NCBI GenBank assembly: GCA_964529975.1
Contig: CAZGXW010000001.1
Coordinates: forward strand, 33,705 to 97,704
Reading direction: 5' to 3'
DNA length: 64,000 bases
Source of the DNA: an uncultured Fimbriimonadaceae bacterium
GTDB lineage: Bacteria > Armatimonadota > Fimbriimonadia > Fimbriimonadales > Fimbriimonadaceae
A program made the translations under genes and the position numbers. Position 1 is the stretch's first letter; the number at the start of each line of letters is the position of its first letter. Of the stretch, positions 5,053-21,488 are shown one piece after another. The notes below the pieces were generated by a model that was given only the letters and a program-made list of their open reading frames with translations, had not been told where the DNA came from and searched no databases.

Positions 5053-5080
5053 GTCTTTTCGCCTTCGGTCAACAAAAGAA

Positions 5081-5220
<140 letters not shown>

Positions 5221-5221
5221 C

Positions 5222-6673
5222 CTATTGTTGTGGCTGAGTCTCGGTCCTGAGGCCAGGGACCTGGATCGCCTCGCCGCCAACGCCGAGCGCGCTGCGCGGA
5301 TCGTAGTTGGGAGTCTTCACGATGGCCGGGCTCCGACCACGGCGATACTCGCCCGTCATCAAAACCATCTCCTTTGGAATCTCCAGTCTGCAAAAGATGA
5401 CACGCTGTCCTTCGCGCGCGTCCGTGCTCAAATAGTTCTTGTCCGTCATGCCTTCACCGTTGAATCCAAACTTGTCCTGGATGTGCGGCGGGGCGCTGCG
5501 GGGGTTGTAGTAGAACTCGATGACGTACTTGTCTTTCCGCAGAGGATACATGGTCACGTCCCGGCTCATGTCCACCTTGCGCGAGAAGCGTTGGCTGCGC
5601 ACGAACAACTGGTCCTGCAAGAACGTCTCGTTCGGGTCGACCTCGAACGTCACGTCGTCCCCCTTGTCCCAGACCATCCCGCCCGGAACTGCATCCTTGT
5701 AGTCCGCGTCCCGGAATATGAAGCGGATGCGAGTGCCCAGGGGAATGACTCCCCAAGTCCCTTCGACCAACAAGATCTTCGGCTCCAAAACGGTCACGCT
5801 CGCGCTGAAACCGATGTCGAACGGCGGCTCGACGTCGTAGCCCGTCAAAGCGTCTCCACGCTCACGCGCAAACGAGCCGCGCTGCGCCATGCGGACAAGA
5901 AGGTTGTCCAGGTTGCCTTCGACCGTGTCTCGGTTGATGCGCTGTGGGCTCATCGGCTCGTCACCCATCTTCGACTCGGCCTCCTTGAGGAACGCGTACA
6001 AGAGATCGACCGCAGAGTGGACCTGACCGTTGCGGAGATAGGCTTGCGCCAAGAGGTTGCGCCGAGCAATGGGGATCGCGTTCAGTTCAGCGCGCCAGTT
6101 CGCTTCGAGCTCGCCAATACCCGCATCCCGATATTCCGCCAAAAGTTCTTCGTACCGGTACTCGTTCGCCCTCTCAAAGTACTTGACCGCTTGTGCGTAA
6201 TCGTCGTCGACCTTGTGGTACCAGATCCAACCCGTCTCGAACCAAAGTTCATACGTGTAGTCGTTGAGCCGTGAACCTTCTTTGCCGAGCGCGATGGCGG
6301 GTGCGATGTACCGACGGTCAGATCTGTGCGCCTCGTCCGTGAAGTTGTAGGCAATGTGCCACATTCCGGTCGCATAGACGTCGATCTGCTTGGGATCAAG
6401 CATCGTCACGATGCGCACCATCGGCAGGATCGCGTCGTAGTTCCCTTCGTCAAAGTAGGCGTCGGCCCTCACCCACAGCAGGCCCGCGATCATCTCCCGG
6501 AACCCGGCCAGGGCAAACAGCATCTGGTCGGGATCGAGCGAAGACAGGTCGCTGTCCTTGCGCGGCGCGTAGTACTTCTTCCAGAAGGGATAAACCACCT
6601 TCTGCTGCATCAGCGCCTGACCAATGAAGGCGCCGACCAAGAGGGGAACGATGAACGCAGCCTTTGCCCTCAA
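5222..6673 (-). CDS. hypothetical membrane-anchored protein with a TPR-like helical region (483 aa), last gene of the ABC-2 operon
   Basis: N-terminal TM helix (AAFIVPLLVGAFIGQALM), a helical-repeat-like middle (YAQAVKYFERANEY, LLAQAYLRNGQVHSAVDLLYAFL) and an unknown C-terminal domain. Only 3 nt from the permease stop. Confidence 0.6.
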   Translation of the reverse strand: MRAKAAFIVPLLVGAFIGQALMQQKVVYPFWKKYYAPRKDSDLSSLDPDQMLFALAGFREMIAGLLWVRADAYFDEGNYDAILPMVRIVTMLDPKQIDVYATGMWHIAYNFTDEAHRSDRRYIAPAIALGKEGSRLNDYTYELWFETGWIWYHKVDDDYAQAVKYFERANEYRYEELLAEYRDAGIGELEANWRAELNAIPIARRNLLAQAYLRNGQVHSAVDLLYAFLKEAESKMGDEPMSPQRINRDTVEGNLDNLLVRMAQRGSFARERGDALTGYDVEPPFDIGFSASVTVLEPKILLVEGTWGVIPLGTRIRFIFRDADYKDAVPGGMVWDKGDDVTFEVDPNETFLQDQLFVRSQRFSRKVDMSRDVTMYPLRKDKYVIEFYYNPRSAPPHIQDKFGFNGEGMTDKNYLSTDAREGQRVIFCRLEIPKEMVLMTGEYRRGRSPAIVKTPNYDPRSALGVGGEAIQVPGLRTETQPQQ

Positions 6674-6676
6674 GCG

Positions 6677-7624
6677 TCAAACCTCCTTCCTATCGAAGAT
6701 CAGGATCCCAAGAATCAGCAGGATTGAGATGTACAGCAGCCCGTAGCCCGCCAAGTTGAGATAGTGGAACATCTCACCTCGGATCACCGTGCCAGGGTTG
6801 ACCACCGAGTTCTGGACGCTGAAGTTCTGGAAGTTGGGCACGATCGATTGGATGATCTGCACCGCCACCTTGGCGAAGACAGGCATCTGACTGTTCTCGG
6901 CCACGGCGTCGAACAGCGTGTTGAACATCGAACCGATCATGTACACGCCGCCCGAAAGGAAGAAGTTCACGATAGGAGACGTGAAAGTCGAGAAGAACAC
7001 GCCGACTGCCGCCAACAGGCACATCTGCACGTAGAACATTGCAGCCGTCTTGGCAAAGTCGCTGTACGTCTCCAACTGGTTCGTCAGCATCCCGATCCAG
7101 TACAGGATTCCCATGAGAGATGCTGCAAGAAGACCGATCACGACTTGACCTCCGGCCTTCTCCTTCAACCTGTTCGTCAGCGCCAGCAAGGCGATCAAGT
7201 TCACGATGAACAGCGCGATTTGCAGGGTCGGTTTGTCCTGCGTCTGCATGACCGCGTAAACGAACAGCAGGGTCAGCGTCATCAGGCCGATCATCAACCC
7301 GAGGGCGCCGATCGCCCCGAAGTACTTGCCGAGCAAGAACTGCCACCGTTGGACAGGCTTTGAAAGGATCGTGTAGATCGTCCTTCGCTCGACCTCGTTC
7401 GGAAGCATGTAGACCGTCAGGACGAGGGCGATGACAGCGCTCGTGATCTGGATGACACCGAGCGTGAGGCTGCGAAGGATCGTCGTCTCCTGGCGCGCCG
7501 TGAGCATGTTGAGGCTCGGGGCAATAACCAAGAAGAGGATGCCGATCAGAAGAATGATCAACAGGATGCGGCGACGGACAGCCTCGCCGATCGTCGTCTT
7601 CGCGATCGAAAGTATGATGTTCAC
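6677..7624 (-). CDS. ABC-2 type transporter permease
   Basis: 315 aa polytopic membrane protein with about 6 hydrophobic segments. Overlaps the ATPase gene stop by 4 nt. Confidence 0.8.
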   Translation of the reverse strand: MNIILSIAKTTIGEAVRRRILLIILLIGILFLVIAPSLNMLTARQETTILRSLTLGVIQITSAVIALVLTVYMLPNEVERRTIYTILSKPVQRWQFLLGKYFGAIGALGLMIGLMTLTLLFVYAVMQTQDKPTLQIALFIVNLIALLALTNRLKEKAGGQVVIGLLAASLMGILYWIGMLTNQLETYSDFAKTAAMFYVQMCLLAAVGVFFSTFTSPIVNFFLSGGVYMIGSMFNTLFDAVAENSQMPVFAKVAVQIIQSIVPNFQNFSVQNSVVNPGTVIRGEMFHYLNLAGYGLLYISILLILGILIFDRKEV

Positions 7625-8683: not shown

Positions 8684-9292
8684 TTATGGGTCGAGCGTTC
8701 CGTCCGCCTCGCGGACGGCCTCGAAGAATGCACGCACCTTATCGGGGTCCTTGACCCCGGGCTCTGACTCGAGCCCACTGCTCACATCGACCGCGAACGG
8801 ACGAAGTTCCGCGATCACCTTTCCCACGTTCTCCGCCCTCAACCCTCCAGCCACGATCACAGGGCGAACCGACTCAGCCATAGCCCGTCGTGCGGCAAGA
8901 AGATCTATGGGGACTCCAGTACCCCCGTATTGGCCGGCGGCATGGGCATCGAGCAGGATCGCGTCGCAGTCCCCCTGGTCAGGCACGTCGTCGTCCGATC
9001 CAATGCGGTGGACGGCGATCGCGCGTTGGCTCGGATCCAACATCGAAGACCGCACGCCTATGGCCTGGACCGCATCGAACGATGCTAGGTGTCCTCCAGA
9101 CTGGAACGGGCCCATTACTGCTACGCGAGAAACATAGGGCGGAACGGACTCAAGCAGCGTTCCAACCTCTGCCAGCCCGACGCACCGTGGGCTCGAAGGC
9201 TCGAGCACGAACCCTACGGCGACCGCTCCCAACGAGACCGCAAGTTCTACGTCCTCGACGCGCGTCAGTCCACACACTTTGACCCGTGTCAC
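8684..9292 (-). CDS. trpF: phosphoribosylanthranilate isomerase
   Basis: MTRVKVCGLTRVEDVELAVSLGAVAVGFV, 202 aa, 4-nt overlap with trpC. Confidence 0.9.
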   Translation of the reverse strand: MTRVKVCGLTRVEDVELAVSLGAVAVGFVLEPSSPRCVGLAEVGTLLESVPPYVSRVAVMGPFQSGGHLASFDAVQAIGVRSSMLDPSQRAIAVHRIGSDDDVPDQGDCDAILLDAHAAGQYGGTGVPIDLLAARRAMAESVRPVIVAGGLRAENVGKVIAELRPFAVDVSSGLESEPGVKDPDKVRAFFEAVREADGTLDP

Positions 9293-10071
9293 CAGCCCAT
9301 CACCTCTCGAACCTTTCCTTGCACGTCGCGAGCAGCACAGAACGTCGTCCCGATCAGTACGGCCCGTGCGCCGGCCGAACGGACGCGCTCGACGTCTTCG
9401 CGCGACCGGATCGCGCTCTCGCTCACCACCGTTGCATGGGCAGCGATCTTCGGGATCAACTGCTCCGTCACATCGAGGTTGGTCTCAAACGTCGCCAAGT
9501 CTCGGTTGTTGATGCCGATGAGACTCGCGCCAGACTCGACGGCGACCTCTGCCTCATGTTCTGAATGCGCCTCGACAAGCGTGTCCATCCCAAGCGATTG
9601 CGCGAGTTCGCGATACTCCTTCAATTGGGACTTGGAAAGTCCGGAGACGATAAGCAGCACAGCATCGGCGCTCAACGCCCTGGCTTGCCACACGTCGTAC
9701 TCGTCGATCGTGAAGTCCTTTCGAAGGACTGGAAGCCCCGAGACTTCGCGACAGAGCGGCAGATAGAGGGGCGATCCCTGGAAGAAATGTACGTCCGTCA
9801 AGACGCTCAGGCAGTCTGCTCCAGCACTCTTGTAGTCTCTTGCGAACGCCTCCGGGTCGAAGTCCTCTCGGATCACGCCTTTGACCGGGCTGGCCTTCTT
9901 GACCTCAGCGATCAGGGCGACTGGGTGGGAAGACGTCGTCAACGCGCGGTGAAATCCGCGCGTCGCTGGCGCGTCCGACGCCATCTTCTTGAGTTCGCCT
10001 AGCGGCAAGCGCGCCTTGTTAGCCTCCAGGTCAGACCGCTTTTGATCGAAGATCCGCTTCAGGACGTCCAT
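9289..10071 (-). CDS. trpC: indole-3-glycerol phosphate synthase
   Basis: ALIAEVKKASPVKGVIREDFDP, LSVLTD..FFQGS and GINNRDL motifs. Confidence 0.93.
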   Translation of the reverse strand: MDVLKRIFDQKRSDLEANKARLPLGELKKMASDAPATRGFHRALTTSSHPVALIAEVKKASPVKGVIREDFDPEAFARDYKSAGADCLSVLTDVHFFQGSPLYLPLCREVSGLPVLRKDFTIDEYDVWQARALSADAVLLIVSGLSKSQLKEYRELAQSLGMDTLVEAHSEHEAEVAVESGASLIGINNRDLATFETNLDVTEQLIPKIAAHATVVSESAIRSREDVERVRSAGARAVLIGTTFCAARDVQGKVREVMGW

Positions 10072-11069
10072 GTGACCAGTTCCTGGAGCGTCTGAAGGGC
10101 CTTTCCGCTCTCGACGGCGTGTCGGGCCAGCATTCCGCCCTCATCCATCGATTCGGCCACGCCGGCCAAGTACAGGGCTGCAGCCGCGTTAGGCACGATT
10201 GCCATGGAGCGTGGCGAACGCGGGTTGCTGAGCGCCTCCAACAATTGCGCCGAACTAGATTCGATGTCGCGGCCAGCCGTCAATGACTCAAAGGGCACCG
10301 AATCGATGCCAAAGTCCCCCGGCGTGAACTCCCGCTTTACGACCCGCCCATCGACGAGTTCTCGAGCAAACGTCCGACCGCTGGGAGAGATCTCATCCAT
10401 GCCTTCCTCGCTATGGACAACCAAGGCTCTTTCCGCACCAAGAAGGTTCAAAGCGTCGGCCATGGGTTGAAGCATAGAAAGGTCGTAGACGCCGACCAAT
10501 TGGCGCGAAGCACCGGCCGGGTTGGACAAGGGGCCGAGTTGGTTGAACACGGTGCGAATGCCGAGCGCCTTGCGGGCTGGACCAACCGCCTTCATTGCGG
10601 GGTGGTGGTTCGGGGCGAACAAGAACACGATGCCTACGCTTTCAAGGGTCTTCGCGAGCAACTCCGGCTCAGAGCGCAGGCCGACACCAAGCGCCTCGAG
10701 CACGTCGGCGCTGCCACACCGGCTCGTCACCGCCCGGTTACCGTGCTTAGCGACCTTCGCGCCCGCGGCCGCGGCCAAGATTGCCGCGCCTGTGGAAAGG
10801 TTGAACGTCGTGGGTCCGCCGCCCGTACCGCACGTGTCGACGAGGTTCGGGAACGCAACTCCGAGACCAACAGAATGCTCTCGCATCGCAGAGGCGAAAC
10901 CCGCAAGTTCGTGAGCAGAGGCCCCCTTCGCGCGAAGTGCGATCAGCAACCCGCCGATCTGCGACTCCTCAAGCCCGCCTGCCATCAGGAGGTCCATCGT
11001 TTCCTTGGCCTGTTCGAACGTGAGGTCTTCCCTATCGAGCAGTAGCTCGAGCAGCGCAGGGAAGGTCAT
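10059..11069 (-). CDS. trpD: anthranilate phosphoribosyltransferase
   Basis: VDTCGTGGGPTTFNLSTGAAILAAAAGAKVAKHGNRAVTSRCGSADVLEALG signature. Confidence 0.93.
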   Translation of the reverse strand: MTFPALLELLLDREDLTFEQAKETMDLLMAGGLEESQIGGLLIALRAKGASAHELAGFASAMREHSVGLGVAFPNLVDTCGTGGGPTTFNLSTGAAILAAAAGAKVAKHGNRAVTSRCGSADVLEALGVGLRSEPELLAKTLESVGIVFLFAPNHHPAMKAVGPARKALGIRTVFNQLGPLSNPAGASRQLVGVYDLSMLQPMADALNLLGAERALVVHSEEGMDEISPSGRTFARELVDGRVVKREFTPGDFGIDSVPFESLTAGRDIESSSAQLLEALSNPRSPRSMAIVPNAAAALYLAGVAESMDEGGMLARHAVESGKALQTLQELVTWTS

Positions 11070-11114: not shown

Positions 11115-11573
11115 ATGTCCGGCGAGTTCCTGCCGATCCTGATCTTGCTCGCGATCGCCGCACTTCTCTGCGCCGCAATGGTGACCCTCTCTTGGGTGCT
11201 GGGGCCAAAAAAGGTGACGCCGTACAAAGCCTCACCTTACGAGTGCGGAGTCGAGCCGATGGGCTCTGCTCAGGAGAGATTCCCGGTCAAGTTCTATCTT
11301 GTCGCGATCATCTTCGTCCTCTTCGACATCGAGGTGATCTTCCTGTGGAGCCTCATGTCGGTCTTTCGAGATGCCCCTCTCGACTTCAAGGTCTTCAGTG
11401 GCATCGCGCTCGGTGTCTATATGCTCCTTTGGATCATTGGGGACGCCTATGTGCTTCGCGTTGGTGCCATTGACTGGGACGAGTCCACGGCGATTGCCCC
11501 TGAAAAGATGCAGGACACGCCCTTGGCCGCGAAGTCGGTTCCATCGATCACAGAGGCAGGTGCCGCCCAGTGA
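11115..11573 (+). CDS. nuoA: NADH-quinone oxidoreductase subunit A, with a C-terminal extension
   Basis: YECGVEP...[24 protein letters not shown] core. At 152 aa it is about 25-30 aa longer than I recall for typical NuoA. Confidence 0.9.
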
Positions 11574-12157
11574 GCGTGGCGACCGAGCGCGCCGACGTCG
11601 CGGCGCTCAAGGCAAGGTTCGGGGACTCGATACTCGGAGTCTTGGACAAGCGCGGAGACGTGTACGTCCTGGCCCAGCGTGACCGGCTTGCTGACCTTGC
11701 CACCTATCTGCGGGACGAACAAGCCTACGACTACTATGTCGAGTGTGTCGGGATCGACTATCTGACCTGGACGCACGAACGGGACTTTACGGAGCGGTTC
11801 GAGGTCGTCCACAACCTGTACTCGACAAGAACTGACAAGCGGCTCTTCCTCAAGGTCGGCGTCGATGACGGCCATACCGTTCCAACCCTCAAGCACGTCT
11901 GGCTTGGGGCCGAATACCCCGAGCGCGAGGTCTGGGATCTGTTCGGCGTCGTGTTCGCTGGAAACGAGCAGTCCGAGCGCTTTCTTCTCCCCGACGATTG
12001 GATCGGCCACCCCCTACGCAAGGACGTGGGCCTGGGAGGAGAAGACGTCGTCTTCGACCAAGGCACCCGCGGCCCGGCCGTAGAGGATGTACAAACTCCC
12101 CATGCGGGCGAGAGTTTCGAAGGAAAGACCGGCAGCGAAGACGTCTCTGGCCGCTGA
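11570..12157 (+). CDS. nuoC: NADH-quinone oxidoreductase subunit C
   Basis: FEVVHNLYS...[22 protein letters not shown]...[16 protein letters not shown]. 4-nt overlap with nuoA. Confidence 0.9.
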
Positions 12158-12386: not shown

Positions 12387-13241
12387 ATGCGTAAAGCGTT
12401 CACACTTATCGAACTGCTCGTCGTCATCGCGATCATCGCGATCCTGGCGGCGATCCTGTTCCCAGTCTTCGCCCAGGCCAAGGTCGCGGCGAAGCGCGCT
12501 GCTTCGATCTCGAACTTGAAGCAGCACTCGCTCGGCATCGTCATGTACGCCGGCGACTTCGACGACTACTTCCCGCGACACCAGTATCGCAACATCGGCT
12601 CGGCGTTCCCGAACGATCGCGTGTTCTGGCCGCTCGCGGTCCAGCCCTACACCAAGAACTGGCCGTTGTTCCGCGATCCTAACCAGAACGTGGACTTCGC
12701 CGGCATCTGGGCGGGCGGCAACCCTGGCCTCAAGTGGTACTACAACTGGATGCGATGGCCCGACTACGGGTTCAACGCGACCTACCTCAACCGCGCAGCG
12801 ACCTGCGCCGGTTGGTGGGGTACCCACGGTGGCTATGGACCGCCGGTCTCCACGACCGCCCCGTCCAACCCCGCCGACACGGTCATGCTGACCACAGCCA
12901 AGATCGTCCACAGCAACTCCGCTGGTTCCGCGTACACCTCGCAGGCCACCGACGCGCCGAGCGCCGTCTGGACGCCTGACGCGTGCACATGGTCCAACGG
13001 CGGCTGGGGAACCGGCTCTTGGGGCGACTCGGTCGGAACCTGGACCTATCCCGGCAACCCGACCTACACCGGACCCAACGCCATCAACTACGGCAACGGC
13101 GGCAACGTGGCCTTCACGGACACCCACGTCAAGCACCTCAAGCCGGGCGGCATGGCTGCTGGCACCAACTGGCTGGTCCCCATCGCGAACACCGCGATCC
13201 AGACCACAGACCTCAGCATCTACGCCTGGGATCTCAACTAG
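12387..13241 (+). CDS. prepilin-type N-terminal cleavage/methylation domain protein (DUF1559/H-X9-DG-like), tandem copy 1
   Basis: [32 protein letters not shown] class III signal, C-terminal [12 protein letters not shown] motif. GGAG 7 nt upstream of the ATG at 12387. Confidence 0.85.
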
Positions 13242-13249
13242 GATCGACC

Positions 13250-13275
13250 GAGGGCCGCGCTCCGGCGCGGCCCTC
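13250..13275 (+). terminator. GC-rich stem-loop 9 nt after the stop of pilin-like copy 1 (no U-tract)
   Basis: gagggccgcgc-tccg-gcgcggccctc, an 11-bp perfect stem. Confidence 0.4.
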
Positions 13276-13485
13276 CCAGACCCTTCCACCCCGTAAACCA
13301 CCCGGGGCGCCCTCCCCCGCGTTTTCCACATTAAATCTCGAAAAAAACCCCATTTCTCCCCTAGGCACAGTATCATGTGGCTTGAGGTTGGGCGGTTATT
13401 CGTGCCTTGAGGCTTGTGGCACTCTTGTTGCAAGCGTAGGGGTACCGAGAACCGGTCAATCCGCTCTACGGAGAAAAAACAAGCA

Positions 13486-14340
13486 ATGCGTAAAGCGTTC
13501 ACACTCATCGAACTGCTCGTCGTCATCGCGATCATCGCGATCCTGGCGGCGATCCTGTTCCCAGTCTTCGCCCAGGCCAAGGTCGCGGCGAAGCGCGCTG
13601 CTTCGATCTCGAACTTGAAGCAGCACTCGCTCGGCATCGTCATGTACGCCGGCGACTTCGACGACTACTTCCCGCGACACCAGTATCGCAACATCGGCTC
13701 GGCGTTCCCGAACGATCGCGTGTTCTGGCCGCTCGCGGTCCAGCCCTACACCAAGAACTGGCCGTTGTTCCGCGATCCTAACCAGAACGTGGACTTCGCC
13801 GGCATCTGGGCGGGCGGCAACCCTGGCCTCAAGTGGTACTACAACTGGATGCGATGGCCCGACTACGGGTTCAACGCGACCTACCTCAACCGCGCAGCGA
13901 CCTGCGCCGGTTGGTGGGGTACCCACGGTGGCTATGGACCGCCGGTCTCCACGACCGCCCCGTCCAACCCCGCCGACACGGTCATGCTGACCACAGCCAA
14001 GATCGTCCACAGCAACTCCGCTGGTTCCGCGTACACCTCGCAGGCCACCGACGCGCCGAGCGCCGTCTGGACGCCTGACGCGTGCACATGGTCCAACGGC
14101 GGCTGGGGAACCGGCTCTTGGGGCGACTCGGTCGGAACCTGGACCTATCCCGGCAACCCGACCTACACCGGACCCAACGCCATCAACTACGGCAACGGCG
14201 GCAACGTGGCCTTCACGGACACCCACGTCAAGCACCTCAAGCCGGGCGGCATGGCTGCTGGCACCAACTGGCTGGTCCCCATCGCGAACACCGCGATCCA
14301 GACCACAGACCTCAGCATCTACGCTTGGGACCTCAACTAA
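13486..14340 (+). CDS. prepilin-type N-terminal cleavage/methylation domain protein (DUF1559/H-X9-DG-like), tandem copy 2
   Basis: 284-aa product identical to copy 1. Start at ATG 13486. Confidence 0.85.
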
Positions 14341-14341
14341 C

Positions 14342-14557
14342 ATGAAGAAGACCTTACTACTGCTCGTCGGTATCGCCCTCATCGCCTGCTTCTACGGATG
14401 CGGCAGCGAGGACGCGGCTCTAGAGACGGCGGCACCGAAGACCTCGGAAGGCGCGCAAGCGCCCGCCGGCGGTGGACAGCCGAAGTCAGTCGGAGATCGC
14501 GGTCCCGAAGGCTCTGACGGGCCGGAAGGCCCTGCGATGAAGCCTGAAGGCATGTAG
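14342..14557 (+). CDS. small lipoprotein (71 aa) with a Pro/Gly/Glu-rich mature part
   Basis: MKKTLLLLVGIALIAC lipobox. The ATG lies 1 nt after the TAA of pilin-like copy 2, which suggests translational coupling. Confidence 0.6.
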   Translation: MKKTLLLLVGIALIACFYGCGSEDAALETAAPKTSEGAQAPAGGGQPKSVGDRGPEGSDGPEGPAMKPEGM

Positions 14558-14579
14558 TCGGGGTCTTCCCAATGACGAT

Positions 14580-14616
14580 GGAAGCGGACGGAGAAATCCG
14601 TCCGCTTCCGCTTTAA
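14580..14616 (+). terminator. intrinsic terminator after the pilin-like/lipoprotein insert
   Basis: ggaagcggacgga-gaaa-tccgtccgcttcc, a 13-bp perfect stem with a GAAA loop, followed by gcttt. Confidence 0.6.
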
Positions 14617-14676
14617 CTCGGTCCGGTTTCACCCGTTCCATCGAACCTGCGTCTGGTACGATTCCAGCGTCTCAGC

Positions 14677-15894
14677 ATGAGCACCAAGACGTTCATCCCC
14701 AGCACCGAGACGGTGTTCCAGAAGACCGACCAGAACACCATGATCGTGAATATGGGGCCGCAGCACCCCAGCACCCACGGTGTCCTGCGGATCATCTGCG
14801 AACTCGAAGGCGAAACCATCGTGCAGGCCAAGTGCGTCATCGGCTACCTCCATACGGGAATGGAGAAGGAGGCCGAGTTCCAGCAGTACCACAAGTGCGT
14901 GGTGATGACCGACCGCATGGACTACCTCAATGCGAACGGCAACAACCTTGCCCACGCGCTCGCGGTCGAGAAACTCCTCGGTTGTGAGATCCCTAAGCGC
15001 GCCCAATACATCCGCGTCGTCCTCGCAGAACTCAGCAGGATCGCCAGCCACTGCGTCTGGCTCGGAACCCACGGCCTCGATCTCGGGGCGATGACGCCCT
15101 TCTTCTACATCATGCAGCAGCGCGAGTTGGTGCTCGACCTCTTTGAAATGATGTCGGGCGTTCGCATGATGCCGTCATGGATCGTTCCCGGTGGCCTGCG
15201 CGGCGACATGCCCGAGGGCTTTGAGACGCGCCTACGCGAGTTCCTCGACCAGTTCCTCGCCGAACTCACCGTCGTTGAAGACCTGCTCGTCGAGAACCCG
15301 ATCTGGAAGGAGCGCACTCAGGGTGTCGGCGCCCTTACTGGCACAGAAGCCCTCGCCCTCGGCTGCAGCGGCCCCATCGCCAGGGGAAGCGGGGTCCCCT
15401 TCGACCTCCGGAAAGCGCAACCGTACTGCTCGTACGAAGACTTCGACTTCCAAATCCCGATCGGCACCAAGGGCGACGTCTACGACCGCTTCCTCGTGCG
15501 CATCGCCGAGATGAAGGAGTCGCACAAGATCATCACCCAGGCGCTCGACGGCATGCCGGAGGGCGGGCATTGGACCAGCGACCGTAAAGTCGCCCCGCCC
15601 CCGCGAAAGGAACTCGACACGTCGATGGAGTCGCTCATCCACCACTTCAAACTCTATACAGAGGGCTACCGAGTGCCCGCCGGAGAGGCCTACGCGGGCA
15701 TCGAGGGTTCGAAGGGCGAACTCGGGTTCTACATCGTCAGCGACGGCACCGCGACGCCGTACCGCTGGCACGAAAGGCCGTCCTCGTTTATGAACCTCAA
15801 GTCTCTAGAAGTCCTCGCGGAGGGCCGGTTGATCGCCGACCTCATCGCGATCATCGGCTCGATCGACATCGTGCTCGGGGAGATCGACCGGTGA
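14677..15894 (+). CDS. nuoD: NADH-quinone oxidoreductase subunit D
   Basis: MIVNMGPQHPSTHGVLR...GYLHTGMEK...IGSIDIVLGEIDR. Confidence 0.95.
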   Translation: MSTKTFIPSTETVFQKTDQNTMIVNMGPQHPSTHGVLRIICELEGETIVQAKCVIGYLHTGMEKEAEFQQYHKCVVMTDRMDYLNANGNNLAHALAVEKLLGCEIPKRAQYIRVVLAELSRIASHCVWLGTHGLDLGAMTPFFYIMQQRELVLDLFEMMSGVRMMPSWIVPGGLRGDMPEGFETRLREFLDQFLAELTVVEDLLVENPIWKERTQGVGALTGTEALALGCSGPIARGSGVPFDLRKAQPYCSYEDFDFQIPIGTKGDVYDRFLVRIAEMKESHKIITQALDGMPEGGHWTSDRKVAPPPRKELDTSMESLIHHFKLYTEGYRVPAGEAYAGIEGSKGELGFYIVSDGTATPYRWHERPSSFMNLKSLEVLAEGRLIADLIAIIGSIDIVLGEIDR

Positions 15895-16508
15895 GCAGCC
15901 TCCTCAAACTCACCGACGGCAAGTCCCGGCCGCGTGCTCCAAGAGCCGACGAACTCGCACTAAAGTTCGGCCAAGAGGCAGTACGCGAACTCGAGGCGCT
16001 CAAGGGGCACTATCCCGACCTCAAGTCTTGCATCCTCCCGGGCCTCTGGATCGCGCAGCGCGAGTACGGCGGCTGGCTTCCGCCCGAGGCCATCGCCGAG
16101 GTCGCGCACAGGCTCCAACGCTCGTACGCCGAAGTCGAAGGCGTCGCGACGTTCTACTCCATGTACAACACCGACCACGCGGTCGGGCGGCACATGATCG
16201 AGGTCTGCACGTGCCTGAGTTGCCACATGTGCGGGGCGTACAAAATCGCCGGTTACCTGAAGGAAAGACTCGGGATCGGCTTCGGAGAGACCACTCCTGA
16301 CGGCGCGATCACATTGCACGAAGTGGAGTGCCTCGACGCGTGCGACCGCGCTCCGGTGCTGCAGGTCGGCGACCAGTACATCGGCCCCGTCGACGAGGCG
16401 AAGATCGATGCTCTGATCGACGACCTGCGGAGCCGTTCGGAGTCGAGTGTCGTGAAACTCGCGGACGAGATCGTCAAGGCGCAGATCCCGGCCAAGGAGC
16501 GTAACTGA
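15891..16508 (+). CDS. nuoE: NADH-quinone oxidoreductase subunit E
   Basis: 2Fe-2S ligands in VCTCLSCHMCG and ECLDACDRAP. 4-nt overlap with nuoD. Confidence 0.92.
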   Translation: MSSLLKLTDGKSRPRAPRADELALKFGQEAVRELEALKGHYPDLKSCILPGLWIAQREYGGWLPPEAIAEVAHRLQRSYAEVEGVATFYSMYNTDHAVGRHMIEVCTCLSCHMCGAYKIAGYLKERLGIGFGETTPDGAITLHEVECLDACDRAPVLQVGDQYIGPVDEAKIDALIDDLRSRSESSVVKLADEIVKAQIPAKERN

Positions 16509-16509
16509 A

Positions 16510-17847
16510 ATGGCCGAACTCAAACTCCTGCTCGAGCACGCTCACGACCCCGCCTATCGCACCCTCGCGGGCTATCGGTCCAAGGGGGGCTACAAGGCGC
16601 TCGCCAAGGCTCTGGACATGGATCGACAGGCGGTCATCGACCAGGTCAAAGCTAGCGGACTTCGCGGTCGCGGCGGCGCAGGATTCCCGACGTGGATCAA
16701 GTGGAACGGTCTTCCCAAGGAAAAGACCAAGCCCCACTACGTCCTGTGCAACGCCGACGAAGGAGAGCCCGGCACGTTCAAGGACAAGCAACTCATGGAG
16801 GAGACTCCGTTCCTGCTTGTCGAGGGCATGACGATCGCAGGGCATGCGACGCAGTCCAACGTCGGCTACATCTACATCCGCGGAGAGTTCGTGGACGCTG
16901 CCCGAGCGCTGCGAAGCGCCATCGACGAGGCCTATGCGAACGGACTGCTCGGCAAAAACATCCTGGGCAAAGGATTCGACTTCGACCTTTACATCCACCT
17001 GGGAGCCGGCTCGTACGAGTGCGGCGAAGAGTCCGCGCTGATGAGTAGCCTCATGGGCGAGCGCGGCATGCCCAGGCTCAAGTTCCCGCACGCTCCTCTC
17101 CCCACAATCGCCGGCCTGTGGGACAGGCCGACGCTGATCAACAACGTCGAGACTTTCACGTGCGTGCCGTTCATCGTCGACAAGGGCGGCGAATGGTACG
17201 CGACGCTGGGCGCCTCGACCAAGAACTCACGCGGGACCAAGGTGTTCTCCGTCAGCGGCCACGTCAACAGGCCAGGCAACTACGAGGTCGAGTTCGGCAC
17301 GCCGCTCCGAGACCTGCTCGCTCTTGCGGGCGGGATCAAAGAAGGACGTCTCAAAGCGTGCGTCCCGGGCGGTTCGTCGGTTCCCATCCTCGACCGAGAA
17401 TCGACCGAGCGGGCTGTGATCGGGTACGAGGAAATGTCCGAGGTCGGCTCGATGGTGGGGTCCGGCGGCTGTATGTTCCTCAACGACGAGACCTGCATCG
17501 TCTCGTTCATCTGGCGGACTGCCAAGTTCTACGCCGAGGAGTCCTGTGGCAAGTGCACTCCGTGTCGCGAGGGCACGCGGTGGATGGAGCAGATCCTGGA
17601 GCGCATCGTTCGCGGCAACGGTCAGCCGGGAGACAAGGAACTCCTGCTAGAAATCTGCTCACAGATCGACGGGCGCTCGTTCTGCGGCCTGGGCGACGCG
17701 GCCGCCTGGCCGGTGGCCGGAGCGATCAAGGTGTTCGGCGAGGAGTTCGACCACTTCATCGAGCACGGGCACAGTCTGGTCGCCTCGCGACTGATGGACG
17801 AGTACAACCCCGATTGGATCGCCCGCTCCTCCAAAGCCAAGGCTTGA
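16510..17847 (+). CDS. nuoF: NADH-quinone oxidoreductase subunit F
   Basis: GLRGRGGAGFPT, CNADEGEPGTFKD and ESCGKCTPCREG motifs. Confidence 0.95.
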   Translation: MAELKLLLEHAHDPAYRTLAGYRSKGGYKALAKALDMDRQAVIDQVKASGLRGRGGAGFPTWIKWNGLPKEKTKPHYVLCNADEGEPGTFKDKQLMEETPFLLVEGMTIAGHATQSNVGYIYIRGEFVDAARALRSAIDEAYANGLLGKNILGKGFDFDLYIHLGAGSYECGEESALMSSLMGERGMPRLKFPHAPLPTIAGLWDRPTLINNVETFTCVPFIVDKGGEWYATLGASTKNSRGTKVFSVSGHVNRPGNYEVEFGTPLRDLLALAGGIKEGRLKACVPGGSSVPILDRESTERAVIGYEEMSEVGSMVGSGGCMFLNDETCIVSFIWRTAKFYAEESCGKCTPCREGTRWMEQILERIVRGNGQPGDKELLLEICSQIDGRSFCGLGDAAAWPVAGAIKVFGEEFDHFIEHGHSLVASRLMDEYNPDWIARSSKAKA

Positions 17848-17890
17848 CCAGTCAATTTGACGGGTAATCCGGGTGCCATAATCGGGCTTC

Positions 17891-17966
17891 GCGGCCGTAG
17901 CTCAGTGGATAGAGCGCTTGCCTCCGGAGCAAGAGGTCGCGGGTTCGAATCCCGCCGGCCGCGCCA
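17891..17966 (+). tRNA. tRNA-Arg (anticodon CCG), CCA encoded
   Basis: Cloverleaf by hand: acceptor GCGGCCG/CGGCCGC, D arm GCUC..GAGC, anticodon stem CUUGC/GCAAG with loop CUCCGGA, T arm GCGGG-UUCGAAU-CCCGC, then G-CCA. Confidence 0.93.
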
Positions 17967-18039
17967 CCCTCGGATTTGAACCTAAAAAGTAGACTTACGT
18001 CTACCTCCCCGAGTTTTCCCCTGCATTATCAAATTCAGG

Positions 18040-18068
18040 TTGCCTTCTGGTTCAAGGTTTGATATACT
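18040..18068 (+). promoter_or_regulatory. sigma70-like promoter for the third pilin-like gene
   Basis: TTGCCT, 17-nt spacer, TATACT, with an extended -10 TG (tttGaTATACT). About 24 nt upstream of the ATG at 18092. Confidence 0.5.
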
Positions 18069-18091
18069 GGAAGCGTTTGGAGACATATATC

Positions 18092-18991
18092 ATGCGTAAG
18101 CGTGCATTTACACTTATCGAGTTGCTCGTCGTGATCGCTATCATTGCGATCCTGGCAGCGATTCTCTTCCCTGTGTTCGCACAAGCCAAGGTTGCTGCGA
18201 AGAAGGCTGCCTGCATCAGCAACATGAAGCAGTGGGGCCTCGCCAACCAGATGTACTGGGCGGACTACGACGACCAGATCGCACTCTGGGAGTACCACTT
18301 CGTGTACAACGTTCTGCCTCCGCAGAACAACCGAGACACCGGCAACATCCTCTATCCGTATGTCAAGAACATGCAGATGGTGGTCACGCCGAACAGCCCG
18401 ATCTCGTTCCGACCTCGCATGTACCCCGATCCGTCGCTCGGTTTTGGTAACCCGGCTTCGATGACGGGCCAGCAGAGGACCGACCAGGAGCTCTACAACG
18501 CAGGTTGGTTGAGCGACTACGGTCTGAACTACATGCCGCTGACGGGCGCGTTCGCCGGCTCCGGCGTTGCCTATCCGTACGGAGTGGGCTTCAACCCGCA
18601 GAAGGCGACCTCGGTCGCCAACCCCGGTGACACCATCCTCCTCGCGACCTCGGTTTGGGACCGCGATGCTTCGGGCGGCGTCATCCACGGTGGAAACATT
18701 GCGTTCGATCCTCCGTGCCGCTACTACACGGACGGTACCGACACCATGGCTCCTCGCCCCTACGGTGCGACGGGCGCCTACTGGTTCGGCGGTTGGAACC
18801 CCGGTTCCCCGCTCGCCTGGAACGTGTTCGGCGGCGTCTGGCCGTACTACGCCAACAAGGCTACGGTCGGCTATATGGACAGCCACGCCAAGTCGCTCAA
18901 CATTGGTGCGATCTCGGCCGGTTGTAACGTGCTGAACGGCTGGGGCGGTCAGGTCATCGACCCGAGCATCTACATCTGGGACCGCAACTAA
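18092..18991 (+). CDS. prepilin-type N-terminal cleavage/methylation domain protein (DUF1559/H-X9-DG-like)
   Basis: [34 protein letters not shown]-terminal [11 protein letters not shown]...[15 protein letters not shown] upstream of the ATG at 18092. Confidence 0.85.
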
Positions 18992-19004
18992 GGCGGCCAC
19001 GACG

Positions 19005-19035
19005 TTTGGGGCCCGATCACAAGTCGGGCCCCAAA
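19005..19035 (+). other. stem-loop between the pilin-like gene and its lipoprotein gene
   Basis: tttggggcccga-tcacaag-tcgggccccaaa, a 12-bp perfect stem, 14 nt after the stop codon. Confidence 0.5.
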
Positions 19036-19061
19036 AATTTGCCGGACACAATCAAAGCAAC

Positions 19062-19253
19062 ATGAAACCGATTTCCGTCATCTTCCTCGCTATCCTCGCG
19101 CTCGCCCTCGTCGGCTGTTCGCAGACCGAGACGACCCAAGACCAGGTCGAAAAGGACGCCAAGGCGATCACGCTCGACCCCAACGCCACGCCGGACACGT
19201 CCGCTTCCGAAGGCATGATGCCCATGCCCGGCCCGAAGAAGGGCGGCGGCTAG
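19062..19253 (+). CDS. small lipoprotein (63 aa) with a Pro/Gly-rich tail
   Basis: MKPISVIFLAILALALVGC lipobox. Mature SQTETTQDQVEKDAKAITLDPNATP is shared with the 21197 paralog. Confidence 0.65.
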   Translation: MKPISVIFLAILALALVGCSQTETTQDQVEKDAKAITLDPNATPDTSASEGMMPMPGPKKGGG

Positions 19254-19272
19254 GCCCCCGACTCAACGTGAC

Positions 19273-19310
19273 GCGGCCCCAGGCTTTGAGCCTGGGGCCG
19301 CTTGCTTTTG
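19273..19310. terminator. bidirectional intrinsic terminator between convergent genes
   Basis: gcggccccaggc-tttga-gcctggggccgc, a 12-bp stem, followed by ttgcttttg. Confidence 0.7.
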
Positions 19311-19324
19311 GAAACCTGAACCGA

Positions 19325-19648
19325 CTACGGCCCCGCGTGGTCTGGACAGACGACGGACGTGCTTCCGTTGCCCAACGCGTACGTCGCATGGGTCGGGCAC
19401 TCGGGCTCGACCTTGATGTAGGCCGGAACCAGGTCGCTCATCGCAGGTGTCGACGAGGAAGTCTGGCCCGTGTCCATGATCCACATGTGCTTTGCCGCCT
19501 CTAGTTTCTGCTGGTTCGACCAGCATGACTTCTCTTGGGCGTTCTCGCGGGCGCTCACGAACTGTGGCACGGCGATGGCCAAGAGGATGCCGATGATCAG
19601 GACTACGATCATGATCTCGACCAGCGTGAAGGCCTTGTTCCTACGCAT
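19325..19648 (-). CDS. small type IV pilin/pseudopilin-like protein (107 aa)
   Basis: MRRNKA/FTLVEIMIVVLIIGILLAIAVPQF class III signal. C-terminal Cys pattern C..(45)..ECP..(15)..VCPDH. Start at the internal ATG 19648 with GGAG upstream. Confidence 0.8.
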   Translation of the reverse strand: MRRNKAFTLVEIMIVVLIIGILLAIAVPQFVSARENAQEKSCWSNQQKLEAAKHMWIMDTGQTSSSTPAMSDLVPAYIKVEPECPTHATYALGNGSTSVVCPDHAGP

Positions 19649-19726
19649 GAGGGACTCCAACGAGGTTTTTCCACGTTGGAGCCTGCCAATCGCGGCTCTG
19701 CGCCCTAGTAAGGAGACCGGTATTCG

Positions 19727-20053
19727 CTACCGGTTATGGGCGCTGCAGGTCGTTTCGCCTTGGAGACCGTTGAGGCTGTAGGTGCCCTTCAGGGGGCATA
19801 GGGGAGGATTCTCGATGTACTCGGGGAGCAGGTCTCGGAAGTAGACCTCGTCGCCAAAGACCTTGCCGTTGTCGACCATCCAGAGCATCTTGGCCTGCTG
19901 GAAGACCTGGCGGTTCTTGGAGCAGGCCGACTCTGTCGTCCTGACCCGGGCGTTGGCGTAGGCCGGGACGGCGATCGCGGTCAAGACGCCCAGGATCGCG
20001 ACGACGATCGCGAGTTCGATCAGGGTGAAGGCCTTGCGCTTCATATGGGACAC
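19727..20053 (-). CDS. small type IV pilin/pseudopilin-like protein (108 aa), paralog of 19325-19648
   Basis: (M)[34 protein letters not shown] start at 20053 with AGGAGG 8 nt upstream. Cys pattern matches the neighbour (LCPLKGTY...TTCSAH). Confidence 0.8.
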   Translation of the reverse strand: MSHMKRKAFTLIELAIVVAILGVLTAIAVPAYANARVRTTESACSKNRQVFQQAKMLWMVDNGKVFGDEVYFRDLLPEYIENPPLCPLKGTYSLNGLQGETTCSAHNR

Positions 20054-20181
20054 CTGTCAAACCTCCTGCACAGGACGGGCCAGGATCTGCCGTTCAGCCC
20101 AATCGCGACGTAAAGCCGTCACTCAACTCAGCAGACATGTGTCTACTCTTGCGAGAAAGTTCCCGCCATACCACAAAACCA

Positions 20182-20210
20182 TTGACAGCGCGCAACGGCT
20201 TTGATACAAT
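20182..20210 (+). promoter_or_regulatory. near-consensus sigma70 promoter for the fourth pilin-like gene
   Basis: TTGACA, 17-nt spacer, TACAAT, with an extended -10 TG (tttGaTACAAT). Confidence 0.6.
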
Positions 20211-20233
20211 TGGGACGTTTGGAGGTTATTATC

Positions 20234-21124
20234 ATGCGTAAGCGTGGATTCACACTCATCGAGTTGCTCGTCGTGATCGCGATCATCGCGATCCTGGCAG
20301 CGATTCTGTTCCCCGTGTTCGCTCAAGCCAAGGTTGCTGCGAAGAAGGCTGCCTGCATCAGTAACATGAAGCAGTGGAGCCTTGCGCACCAAATGTACTG
20401 GGCTGACTTCGACGACATGGTGTCGTTGTGGCAGTACCACTACAACTTCTCGGTTATTGCTCCGCAATACGACCGCGACCTGGGCAACTTGCTCTATCCG
20501 TACGTGAAGAACATGCAAATGTCCGTCACGCCGAACAGCCCGATCAGCTATCGGGCGCGCTTGACGAGCATCTACTTCCCTAACCCCGGAACGCTTACCG
20601 GACAGGCGAGGACCGACCAAGAGATCTTCAACGCTGGATGGTTGACCGACTACGGCTACAACTACCAGGCGCTGACGGGCTTCTTTGCTGGAAATCCGCC
20701 GTACGCCCCGTTCGGATTCATGTGGAACCCTCAAAAGGCCACTTCTGTCCAGAACCCGGGTGACTCGATCCTGAGCGTTACGGGCGTATTCGACCGTGAC
20801 TCAGCGGGCGGCGTCCTTGATGGAGGCCAGTTGCCGATCGACCCGCCGTGCCGTTACTACACTGACGGTACGGACACGTTGGCTCCGTCTCCCTATGGCT
20901 CGACAGGACGCTACTACTATGGTGGCTGGCGACCTGACCTGCCGCTCGCTTGGAACGTGTTCGGTGGCGTGTGGCCGTACTATGCCAACAGGGCAACAGT
21001 CGGCTTCATGGACAGCCACGCCAAGTCGCTCAACATTGGAGCGATCTCGGCAGGCTGTAATGTCCTCCCCGCTTGGGGTGGGCAGATCGTCGACCCGAGC
21101 ATCTACATCTGGGACCGCAACTAG
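20234..21124 (+). CDS. prepilin-type N-terminal cleavage/methylation domain protein (DUF1559/H-X9-DG-like), paralog of 18092-18991
   Basis: [44 protein letters not shown]...[16 protein letters not shown] upstream of the ATG at 20234. Confidence 0.85.
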
Positions 21125-21140
21125 TCGGACTCCCCTGACC

Positions 21141-21171
21141 GAGGGATCCGACACACGATGTCGGATCCCTC
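21141..21171 (+). other. stem-loop between the pilin-like gene and its lipoprotein gene
   Basis: gagggatccgaca-cacga-tgtcggatccctc, a 13-bp perfect stem, 17 nt after the stop codon. Confidence 0.5.
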
Positions 21172-21196
21172 ATCCATGTCGGAACCAAGAAGACCT

Positions 21197-21415
21197 ATGA
21201 AATCGATTCTCACTCTAATCCTGCTGGGCATCGCGCTGGCGATGTTCGGCTGCTCCTCGACGGAGACTACGCAAGACCAGGTCGAAAAGGACGCTGCGGC
21301 GATCACCACCGACCCCTCAGCGACTCCCATGCAGAGTCCAGACGTCCAACAGGCTCCACCGATCCCGTCTTCGCCCGATGGTCAACAGTACGGTAAGAAG
21401 CCGGCTGGCGGTTAG
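21197..21415 (+). CDS. small lipoprotein (72 aa) with a Pro/Gln-rich tail
   Basis: MKSILTLILLGIALAMFGC lipobox. Mature SSTETTQDQVEKDAAAITTDPSATP. Start set to the ATG at 21197. Confidence 0.65.
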   Translation: MKSILTLILLGIALAMFGCSSTETTQDQVEKDAAAITTDPSATPMQSPDVQQAPPIPSSPDGQQYGKKPAGG

Positions 21416-21433
21416 GCTCTCGATCCGCGTGAC

Positions 21434-21469
21434 AAGCGGGCCGGAACCCATGCGGTTTCCGGCCCGCTT
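21434..21469. terminator. stem-loop between the convergent lipoprotein gene and thrS
   Basis: aagcgggccggaa-(10 nt)-ttccggcccgctt, a 13-bp stem. Confidence 0.5.
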
Positions 21470-21488
21470 TCACTTGCCTGTACTGATC

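Follow-up and report, generated by a model that had tools for sequence, protein, structure and literature searches.

In the pilin-accessory cassettes of Pseudomonas, Dichelobacter, Eikenella, and Xanthomonas, the terminator lying behind the pilin gene is believed to serve as an attenuator of the accessory gene (PMC11841053). This cassette logic is known from Pseudomonadota. A second group of relevance comprises the prepilins with large DUF1559-like heads of Planctomycetota, Verrucomicrobiota, Lentisphaerota, and Armatimonadota, with tens to hundreds of such genes in a genome and no solved structure. DUF1559 proteins, labeled by Pfam as a solute-binding protein family, are encoded in 74 copies in R. 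baltica and in 68 copies, two of them essential, in P. limnophila, while the genome paper of F. ginsengisoli lists 79 PulG-like genes along with a single lipoprotein signal peptidase and mentions no partner. Here, a 64,000-nt stretch of DNA (the window) from an uncultured Fimbriimonadaceae bacterium of the phylum Armatimonadota (contig CAZGXW010000001.1) was analyzed, in which the initial annotation had pointed out a recurring module of a DUF1559-like, prepilin-type gene followed by a small open reading frame (ORF) for a tiny lipoprotein. The window contains three such cassettes, named A, B, and C, where A has two copies of the pilin-like gene (A1 and A2). The cassettes share a common anatomy and regulatory layout, the position of the two genes is strictly conserved among the relatives, and the genes evolve under purifying selection. 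Considering this conservation of position, the selection, and the intactness of the natural variants, the pair is very probably a real and conserved two-gene unit, as the initial annotation had proposed.

Conservation of the gene pair and anatomy of the small partners

As the products of the small downstream genes, hereafter partners, are too short and too divergent for sequence search, their conservation was followed by positional analysis. Ten homologues with 44–63% pilin identity, together with neighboring paralogues, were accompanied by enough downstream DNA and yielded 13 further distinct cassettes (loci L082, L083, L087, L090, L093, L095, L099, L102+, L102−, L103+, L103−, L106, and L107) originating from Fimbriimonadaceae and Chthonomonadales metagenomes. 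In all 16 cassettes (the three of the window and these 13), an anchored ORF of 63–80 amino acids (aa) lies directly downstream of the pilin-like gene on the same strand, and the same build recurs in each of them: the N-terminus is basic, a hydrophobic helix comes next, and the tail is hydrophilic. L107 comes from a Chthonomonadales metagenome-assembled genome (MAG), its pilin-like protein scores as DUF1559, and the partner of cassette B has an identical copy on an independent contig, L081. In L083, the partner is followed by a 111-aa minus-strand ORF that does not encode a pilin, and its likeness in length to a small pilin of the window is a coincidence.

Three controls were available for this association. 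Of the 519 other ORFs with a length of 150 aa or more in this DNA, 7 have such a downstream ORF; scoring the small ORF beside homologous genes, which the initial annotation had put forward as a check, thus gave 16/16 against this background. None of the six other prepilin subfamilies present in the Armatimonadota loci has a partner, and only two to three of 73 generic DUF1559-like genes, mostly from the Planctomycetes–Verrucomicrobia–Chlamydiae (PVC) phyla, are followed by a small anchored ORF. The latter set came from a scan of genome contigs with the family alignment, which caught the universal N-terminal helix and returned mostly PVC DUF1559-like loci instead of close relatives; these were used here as out-group and control. 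A scan of metagenome contigs with the head domain found one locus, which was identical to the window.

Several lines of evidence indicated that the small ORFs are genes. The initial annotation had named the balance of synonymous and nonsynonymous changes among its tests, and the comparison of partners B and C points to purifying selection, with a dN/dS ratio (ω) of 0.42 overall and 0.23 for codons 20–45 at dS 0.94 (dS ~0.9–1.0), the respective ω of the B and C pilin genes being 0.24 (dS 0.82). The G + C content at third codon positions (GC3) of the small ORFs in the window is 0.70–0.88 (0.71 in partner A) versus 0.76–0.88 in the neighboring genes. Population variants of three partners contain substitutions, no frameshifts or stops, and have unchanged C-termini; for partner A, four variants were found, all intact and with the C-terminus conserved. 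Across contigs carrying the same pilin, a polymorphism-based pN/pS comparison had only 0–4 differences to draw on.

The three lipobox ORFs reported earlier for the window were all recovered with the expected lengths and lipoboxes (Table 1). They have a basic n-region, an h-region, and the sequence [LVI][ASTVI][GAS]C, to which the MFGC of partner C is a permissive match. The predicted lipidation site of partner A is ambiguous, being either C16 (in LIAC) or C20 (in YGC), which aligns to the GC-G of the other partners. In most partners the residue at position +2 of the lipobox is Ser or Gly. The designation "lipoprotein" fits, by the presence of a lipobox, 12 of the 16 partners, whereas the other four (L095, L099, L102+, and L103+) have an uncleaved transmembrane (TM) helix and contain no Cys at all. 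Judging from the sequences, the conserved trait is tethering to the membrane, not lipidation.

The tails of the 16 partners are approximately 45–55 aa long and contain 14% Ala, 12.5% Pro, 11.5% Gly, and 8% Lys. Partner A has a Pro/Gly/Glu-rich tail ending in PAMKPEGM, in partner B a short helix (QDQVEKDA) is accompanied by a disordered tail with GMMPMPGPKKGGG at its end, and the Pro/Gln-rich tail of partner C ends in YGKKPAGG. The AlphaFold2 model of partner B contains helices at residues 3–18 (the signal) and 26–33 and is of low confidence elsewhere. The shared block described earlier, TETTQDQVEKDA followed by AIT.DP.ATP, is indeed common to partners B and C. A short helical segment behind the anchor, T-x-x-[DQ]-[VI]-x-K-x-A, characterizes the B/C-type partners, and it is recognizable between partner C and its L087 counterpart, where the similarity is weak but detectable. 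The C-termini follow the motif [AVTM]-M-[GPK]-[GP]-x(0-4)-[KR] in 12 of the 16 partners (for example, AMKPEGM, MMPMPGPKK, VMGKPG, VMGPPKR, TMGGAGK, AMMRGGKK, MMGGGGK, AMPPGVNR, and TMGGGPAAR) versus a mean of 0.8 in shuffled tails, a statistic that is only indicative since the motif was defined post hoc. Twenty-two of the 34 Met residues of the tails are within the last 15 positions, and five tails end in Lys.

The partners match no described family by sequence or architecture. When partner C was compared with 5.8 billion proteins, the sole match was itself. No Pfam or NCBIfam family fits the partners, the best hits reaching 15–20 bits versus cut-offs of 43–120, mostly through the signal peptide. 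The strongest of the sub-threshold NCBIfam hits were Lpp/OprI-type proteins, LptM, and other small envelope lipoproteins, each family matching at most three of the 16 partners, and the Pfam scan gave nothing consistent. LpoB, the label of partner B at JGI, was rejected as an artifact; like PG1828, Lpp/OprI, LptM, the precursors of MNIO-modified RiPPs (ribosomally synthesized and post-translationally modified peptides), and the pilotins, which were also tried as the identity of the partners, it is a sub-threshold match driven by the signal peptide. In the source annotation the partners are labeled "hypothetical", save for this one spurious LpoB. The initial annotation had regarded the partner as undescribed, and this stands for every family model, source annotation, and paper that we found; those of these papers that mention DUF1559 describe no partner. 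As homology searches cannot link the partners, position alone reveals them. The annotation of small ORFs is unreliable for this family: of the 13 partners from other loci, 11 had been predicted in the same frame by the gene caller of the collection, the L103− partner (minus strand, ~1667–1858) was called as a 39-aa protein versus the full ORF of 63 aa, the L106 partner (6834–7052) was left uncalled, and so was that of L099 (6987–7208), though an identical ORF was called in L100.

The large pilin-like proteins

The four pilin-like genes of the window begin with ATG codons at the positions given in the initial annotation (12387, 13486, 18092, and 20234) and encode proteins of 284, 284, 299, and 296 aa. 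They share the class III N-terminus attributed to them, MRK(R)(A/G) followed by a FTLIE-type site, as well as the C-terminal tail D(L/P)SIY(A/I)WD(L/R)N, which is present in one version in A1/A2 and in another in B/C. The short basic leader, the F-T-L-I-E sequence with Glu at +5, and the hydrophobic α1 helix are those of type IV pilin-like proteins. Accordingly, the N-terminal methylation motif scores 30.4–37.4 bits with PF07963 (cut-off 21.2) and 31–37 bits with TIGR02532 (cut-off 16.3), and it is the only part exceeding family thresholds. Residue −1 of the predicted prepilin peptidase site is canonically Gly, while Ala is tolerated by some prepilin peptidases; in the window, Gly occurs only in gene C, and Ala is found in A and B as well as in 90% or more of the family members.

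Beyond the N-terminus, these proteins resemble no solved structure. A profile built from 121 family members matched solved structures solely via the α1 helix (E = 6e-14 to 1e-10), with PilA-N of Geobacter, whose PDB entry is called "Geopilin domain 1 protein", in first place (E = 6e-14) and the Thermus and Myxococcus major pilins behind it; in pilin B, the match to solved type IV pilins is confined to residues 3–60. The structure that AlphaFold2 predicts for B (pLDDT 95.9) consists of a helix of residues 8–58 and a large head of mixed loops and β strands, and the Foldseek search of this head against the PDB gave no match better than E = 3.7. A solute-binding-protein fold, or any other solved fold, is therefore unsupported for the head. 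Two Cys residues, C209 and C278 in B, are nearly invariant in the family and are missing from A. The family is large, with 9,020 representative clusters reaching E = 1e-30 or lower, and is further marked by a C-terminal Y-x-W-[DGSA] present in 115 of the 121 members.

The designation "DUF1559-like" could be kept only in part. PF07596 (DUF1559, SBP_bac_10) scored the window proteins at 13.5, 16.9, and 12.7 bits, below the cut-off of 23.3 and at model positions 2–59 only, and TIGR04294 matched none of the window proteins or of 26 family members in NCBIfam scans. The H-X9-DG motif is exact in 38 of the 121 members, and the window copies read Y-X9-DS (B and C) or Y-X9-DT (A). On the other hand, relatives of gene A at 40–54% identity carry PF07596, and one of them, P0177 (54% identity), is named DUF1559. 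Thus, the window proteins are remote relatives of the DUF1559/H-X9-DG superfamily that do not score as DUF1559 members, and their novelty is at the level of a subfamily within a known, uncharacterized superfamily.

As for the relations among the four genes, all are present as claimed, but the first two are not independent. Only 4 of the 855 nt of the coding sequence (CDS; positions 21, 840, 846, and 855) distinguish A1 from A2, and their likeness stops exactly at the CDS borders, the flanks being unrelated both upstream and downstream. This suggests that they represent one lineage, produced by gene conversion between tandem paralogues, by a very recent duplication of the CDS only, or by mis-assembly. 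Because of this near-identity the window contains two lineages, A and B/C, and A1 lacks a partner of its own because its twin A2 comes next. The B and C pilins are 75% identical in amino acids, and the two cassettes derive from an old duplication of the whole cassette, which begins at the −10 element and reaches about halfway into the partner gene (75% nucleotide identity, dS ~0.8); the promoter regions of B and C are homologous as well.

Lipoprotein genes were also observed in the out-group. In Planctomycetota loci, approximately 13% of the DUF1559-like genes are followed by a lipoprotein, mostly of 124–152 aa. In four loci (L008, L020, L021, and L047), lipoproteins of 130–152 aa with a GTVT.DG.PV-type motif stand after DUF1559-like genes, and the sequence of these proteins may correspond to a β-sandwich like the carboxypeptidase regulatory domain. 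L025, L026, and L027 are further Planctomycetota DUF1559-like loci with following lipoproteins, and in L045 (Isosphaeraceae) the lipoprotein after the DUF1559-like gene is 64 aa long. Pairing with a lipoprotein may be a property of the wider superfamily.

Expression signals and surroundings of the cassettes

The features of the region are collected in Table 1. The two look-alike extended −10 promoters noticed earlier upstream of cassettes B and C were both found, each with a TG preceding the −10 hexamer. All three cassettes of the window are terminated by a strong hairpin or terminator. The pilin-like genes have a GGAG/GGAGG Shine–Dalgarno sequence, whereas the partner genes lack one. The junction of the two genes takes one of two forms. 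In 9 of the 16 cassettes, the pilin stop and the partner start overlap (TAATG, TGATG) or are separated by 1–5 nt, as in cassette A, where the partner begins 1 nt after the A2 stop; the stop–start overlap suggests that translation of the two genes may be coupled. In the other seven (B and C of the window, L093, L095, L099, L102+, and L103−), the gap is 49–128 nt and always contains a GC-rich hairpin of 10–14 bp after the pilin stop, so that each of the five homologous cassettes with a long gap (49 nt or more) has a hairpin like those of B and C. If these hairpins attenuate transcription, the partner would be made in smaller amounts than the pilin-like protein.

Table 1. Cassettes, signals, and neighboring genes in the window (positions in nt)
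Feature	Position	Strand	Remarks
Bacterial small signal recognition particle (SRP) RNA	5083–5181	−	Rfam, 59 bits
trpC, trpD	9289–11069	−	
nuoA	11115–11573	+	
nuoC	11570–12157	+	
Pilin-like A1 (284 aa)	12387–13241	+	Class III signal MRKA/FTLIE (cleavage at the slash); PF07963 30.4 bits; TIGR02532
Hairpin, 11 bp, GC-rich, directly 3′ of A1 stop	13250–13275	+	No U tract; −31.6 kcal/mol, z = −5.0
Pilin-like A2 (284 aa)	13486–14340	+	Protein sequence identical to A1
Partner A (71 aa)	14342–14557	+	Lipobox LIAC, or YGC by homology
Terminator-like hairpin, 13 bp, between partner A and nuoD	14580–14609	+	−34.3 kcal/mol, z = −3.9
nuoD, nuoE, nuoF	14677–17847	+	
tRNA-Arg(CCG), between nuoF and cassette B	17891–17966	+	Rfam
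Promoter of cassette B, sigma-70 type	18040–18068	+	TTGCCT-17-TATACT, extended −10 TG; consensus scan
Pilin-like B (299 aa)	18092–18991	+	Class III signal, long α1 helix, large head
Hairpin, 13 bp, between pilin B and partner B	19005–19035	+	Flanks UUU and AAAAAUUU; candidate attenuator; −31.3 kcal/mol, z = −4.1
Partner B (63 aa)	19062–19253	+	Lipobox LVGC
Intrinsic terminator of cassette B	19273–19301	+	13-bp stem, then UUGCUUUU
Small pilin no. 1, between cassettes B and C	19325–19648	−	
Small pilin no. 2, between cassettes B and C	19727–20044	−	
Promoter of cassette C, sigma-70 type	20182–20210	+	TTGACA-17-TACAAT, extended −10 TG; 11/12 consensus positions
Pilin-like C (296 aa)	20234–21124	+	Paralogue of B
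Hairpin, 13 bp, between pilin C and partner C	21141–21171	+	−32.3 kcal/mol, z = −3.7
Partner C (72 aa)	21197–21415	+	Lipobox MFGC
Strong hairpin between convergent partner C and thrS	21429–21473	.	Probably shared terminator; −37 kcal/mol, z = −5.6
thrS	from 21489	−	

The G + C content of the window is approximately 60%, and the closest homologues of its pilin-like proteins come from Fimbriimonadaceae/Fimbriimonas (Armatimonadota) MAGs. The Rfam scan found no RNA family within the cassettes, the window matches being the tRNA-Arg and the SRP RNA. In total, six prepilin-type genes are present in the 64 kb, the four pilin-like genes and the two small pilins, which are ~105–107 aa long when counted from the ATG and resemble ComGC/GspG (ComGC 49.7 bits, GspG 46.2 bits, each below its cut-off); neither of them is followed by a small partner ORF. 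Cassette A, with A1, A2, and their partner, is inserted in the NADH dehydrogenase cluster, on the same strand, between nuoC and nuoD, and nuoB is absent between nuoA and nuoC in the window. The hairpin preceding nuoD may divide the nuo cluster into separate transcription units here. The surroundings of C are kept in L087, a 1.23-Mb contig of another Fimbriimonadaceae population with a pilin 58% identical to that of C, where the pilin-like gene, the partner, and the convergent thrS follow one another at 4001–6950 in the same order as at 20234–~23400 of the window. In L106, the gene A homologue lies ~4 kb from trpF-trpC-trpD, and in the window trpC and trpD are located just upstream of the nuo/A region.

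Possible role of the micro-protein and comparison with known systems

The layout of the cassettes parallels that of the TfpY/FimB-type systems, which points to an accessory role for the small partner. We favor the explanation that the loci are stand-alone "pilin-accessory" cassettes, which, taken as a whole, has not quite an even chance of being correct. Its parts differ in strength: that the two products are partners, functionally or physically, is rather probable, and a specific escort or assembly role of the partner remains, on the present analysis, doubtful. Under this explanation, the first gene would supply a pilin-like protein of ~285–300 aa with a short class III leader, the FTLIE site, an α1 helix of 50 residues, and a large head, and the second a micro-protein of 63–80 aa residing at the periplasmic face of the membrane, tethered by a lipid or by an uncleaved TM helix. 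The micro-protein would expose a tail of ~45–55 aa, largely disordered, with Met-(Gly/Pro)2-x-Lys/Arg near its C-terminus. Each cassette would be expressed from its own strong sigma-70 promoter and closed by its own terminator, with the output of the partner presumably set either by the stop–start overlap, through coupling, or by the stable post-pilin hairpin, through attenuation. The periplasmic target of the micro-protein might then be either its cognate pilin-like protein or a shared type IV filament or type II secretion machinery that handles this protein, and as an accessory or escort it could stabilize the membrane-embedded subunit or control its entry into the (pseudo)pilus, a mode of action that is also proposed for the TfpY/FimB-type accessory proteins and for Geobacter PilA-C. 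The interchangeable anchor implies that only membrane proximity matters, and the concentration of the constraint in short linear segments suits a peptide-in-groove type of binding.

Some observations weigh against the accessory role. No genes of a type IV filament or secretion machinery adjoin the cassettes in the window. The sample consists of 16 cassettes from roughly 10 genomes or populations and was chosen by homology. The partners diverge faster than the heads, as seen in the comparison of C with L087, where the partners are 38% identical over 40 aa versus 58% over the full length of the pilins; due to this fast evolution and the lack of search hits, the homology of the 16 partners rests on position, architecture, and the post hoc motif. 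The motif itself is missing from partner C of the window, L082, and L090, and L103− has a loose fit (MMTVPK) that was not counted. Moreover, as it is common to the partners of very different heads, the motif fits a common third target equally as well as the cognate pilin.

The last point leads to the main rival explanation, according to which the micro-protein is independent, a periplasmic tether or spacer, a peptidoglycan-associated lipoprotein attached through its Lys-rich C-terminal end, or a Met-rich binder of a metal or ligand, and merely shares the pilin promoter. The link between the two products would then lie in their co-expression, with no physical contact. A C-terminal motif that is alike across very divergent heads would be expected if the target were other than the variable head, and the five tails ending in Lys recall Braun's lipoprotein Lpp, which also ends in Lys. 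The hairpin of seven cassettes partly uncouples the two genes, and the strongest NCBIfam hits were Lpp/OprI-type, LptM, and small envelope lipoproteins; these hits, however, are far under the cut-offs and come mostly from the signal peptide. We consider this explanation unlikely, since it does not account for a partner after 16 of 16 paralogues of one family versus 7 of 519 other genes, for the duplication of the B/C pair as one unit, or for the stop–start overlap in nine cassettes that suggests coupled synthesis. It is quite unlikely that the small ORF is the reduced descendant of a larger lipoprotein that accompanies DUF1559-type genes, an idea compatible with the accessory role, which would make the unit ancient and superfamily-wide instead of an Armatimonadota innovation. 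A lipoprotein ORF follows 9 of 68 generic DUF1559-like genes, four of the lipoproteins (L008, L020, L021, and L047) share the GTVT.DG.PV-type motif, and the start of the L008 partner overlaps the DUF1559 stop; yet this frequency is only ~13%, the two partner types have no detected sequence similarity, and six other Armatimonadota prepilin subfamilies have no partner of any kind.

Surface lipoproteins dependent on the type II secretion system (T2SS), such as pullulanase, are an established precedent for the possibility that the micro-protein is a cargo, carried to or displayed at the surface by the pilin-like protein or a pseudopilus, with the head as a carrier domain. One partner per pilin-like gene, Ser or Gly at lipobox position +2 in most partners, and a head of novel fold that could be a binding module would agree with such a function. 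We regard it as very unlikely, as four partners have an uncleaved TM helix, which is hard to square with surface export, the short, low-complexity, poorly conserved tails contain no obvious payload, and the attenuating hairpins imply less partner than pilin-like protein. Finally, the window partners lack a good Shine–Dalgarno sequence, are of low-complexity composition, and gave no homologues in sequence search, as if the small ORFs were untranslated by-products of composition and the conserved feature were the RNA hairpin or terminator. This is extremely improbable: the start codon, basic n-region, hydrophobic helix, hydrophilic tail, and length of 63–80 aa recur in 16 of 16 cassettes despite the divergence, nine cassettes have no hairpin, only overlapping or near-touching stop and start codons, ω is below 1 at saturating dS, in-frame GC3 is 0.70–0.88, and the population variants have no frameshifts or stops.

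A broader version of the accessory role can be put forward tentatively, namely that disordered, tethered micro-proteins with a C-terminal Met-Gly/Pro-Lys motif are obligate partners of a whole clade of DUF1559-related pilin-like proteins in Armatimonadota (~9,000 clusters at 50% identity), the "DUF1559-type head plus downstream lipoprotein" possibly being the ancestral unit of one of the largest uncharacterized expansions of paralogues in bacteria. If so, the micro-protein would offer a first way to approach by experiment what these pilin-like genes, hundreds of them in a genome, do, and the peptide motif would mark a binding site. With a strictly co-inherited micro-protein at its side, a family of anonymous paralogues becomes a unit of two defined components. 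The partners also show how conserved small proteins fare in annotation pipelines, where they are called "hypothetical", given a wrong name (LpoB), or left out (L106 and the copy in L099).

Among the known systems, the superfamily of DUF1559/H-X9-DG proteins (Planctomycetota, Verrucomicrobiota, Lentisphaerota, and Armatimonadota) provides the nearest relatives of the pilin-like part. These proteins similarly combine a class III signal with a head of ~250–300 aa, have undergone huge paralogous expansions, and carry a C-terminal DGH/DSH-AK-type motif, as here, whereas the window family has its own Y-x-W-D tail, mostly Ala at −1, and Y-X9-DS/DT in place of H-X9-DG. Large globular proteins of the periplasm or surface with a pilin-type signal, many paralogues, and a shared type IV filament-like assembly are also found in the archaeal bindosome, formed in Sulfolobus by sugar-binding proteins with class III signal peptides. 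For the bindosome proteins we know of no small tethered partner, and the solute-binding fold is unsupported in our case, the confident head model having no PDB match.

The role of the partner can be compared with three groups of proteins. LptM/YifL and the pilotins GspS/PulS/AspS are small lipoproteins that serve as assembly factors, acting via short peptide segments on a larger envelope machine. LptM was hit weakly by two partners (E = 0.013), far below the cut-off and mostly through the signal peptide, while the pilotins differ in being folded proteins of at least 100 aa, encoded with secretin genes and binding the secretin S-domain; no secretin or Lpt gene adjoins the cassettes here. In Geobacter, PilA-C (Spc), the product of the small gene after the pilin gene, binds and stabilizes the pilin. 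The gene order of PilA-N/PilA-C (PDB 7tgg) is thus that of a pilin gene followed by a small gene, and the α1 helix of our family is closest to that of PilA-N, but PilA-C is a folded, β-rich domain that makes up for the head lacking in a truncated pilin, whereas here a very large head is already part of the pilin-like protein, and the partner is disordered.

The closest parallel in gene organization is offered by pilA of Pseudomonas aeruginosa with tfpO/W/X/Y/Z and by FimB of Dichelobacter, Neisseria, and Acinetobacter, where the accessory gene is likewise directly downstream, on the same strand, and co-regulated (PMC11841053). A terminator-like hairpin follows the pilin in those cassettes, as in B, C, and five homologous cassettes here, and the accessory duplicates and diverges with its pilin in both cases. 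In contrast, TfpX/Y/Z are proteins of ~235–245 aa (170 aa in one TfpX variant) that have three N-terminal TM helices and, in the periplasm, a folded α/β domain, while the partners described here have 63–80 aa, a single anchor, and a disordered tail, without any sequence relationship to them. The pilins differ as well, since the Pseudomonas-type system is a single major-pilin locus and the present pilin, with its ~240-aa head, belongs to a massively paralogous family. Were the accessory role correct, the design of the pilin-accessory cassette would reach beyond Pseudomonadota into a distant phylum, where the accessory protein is of a very different kind.

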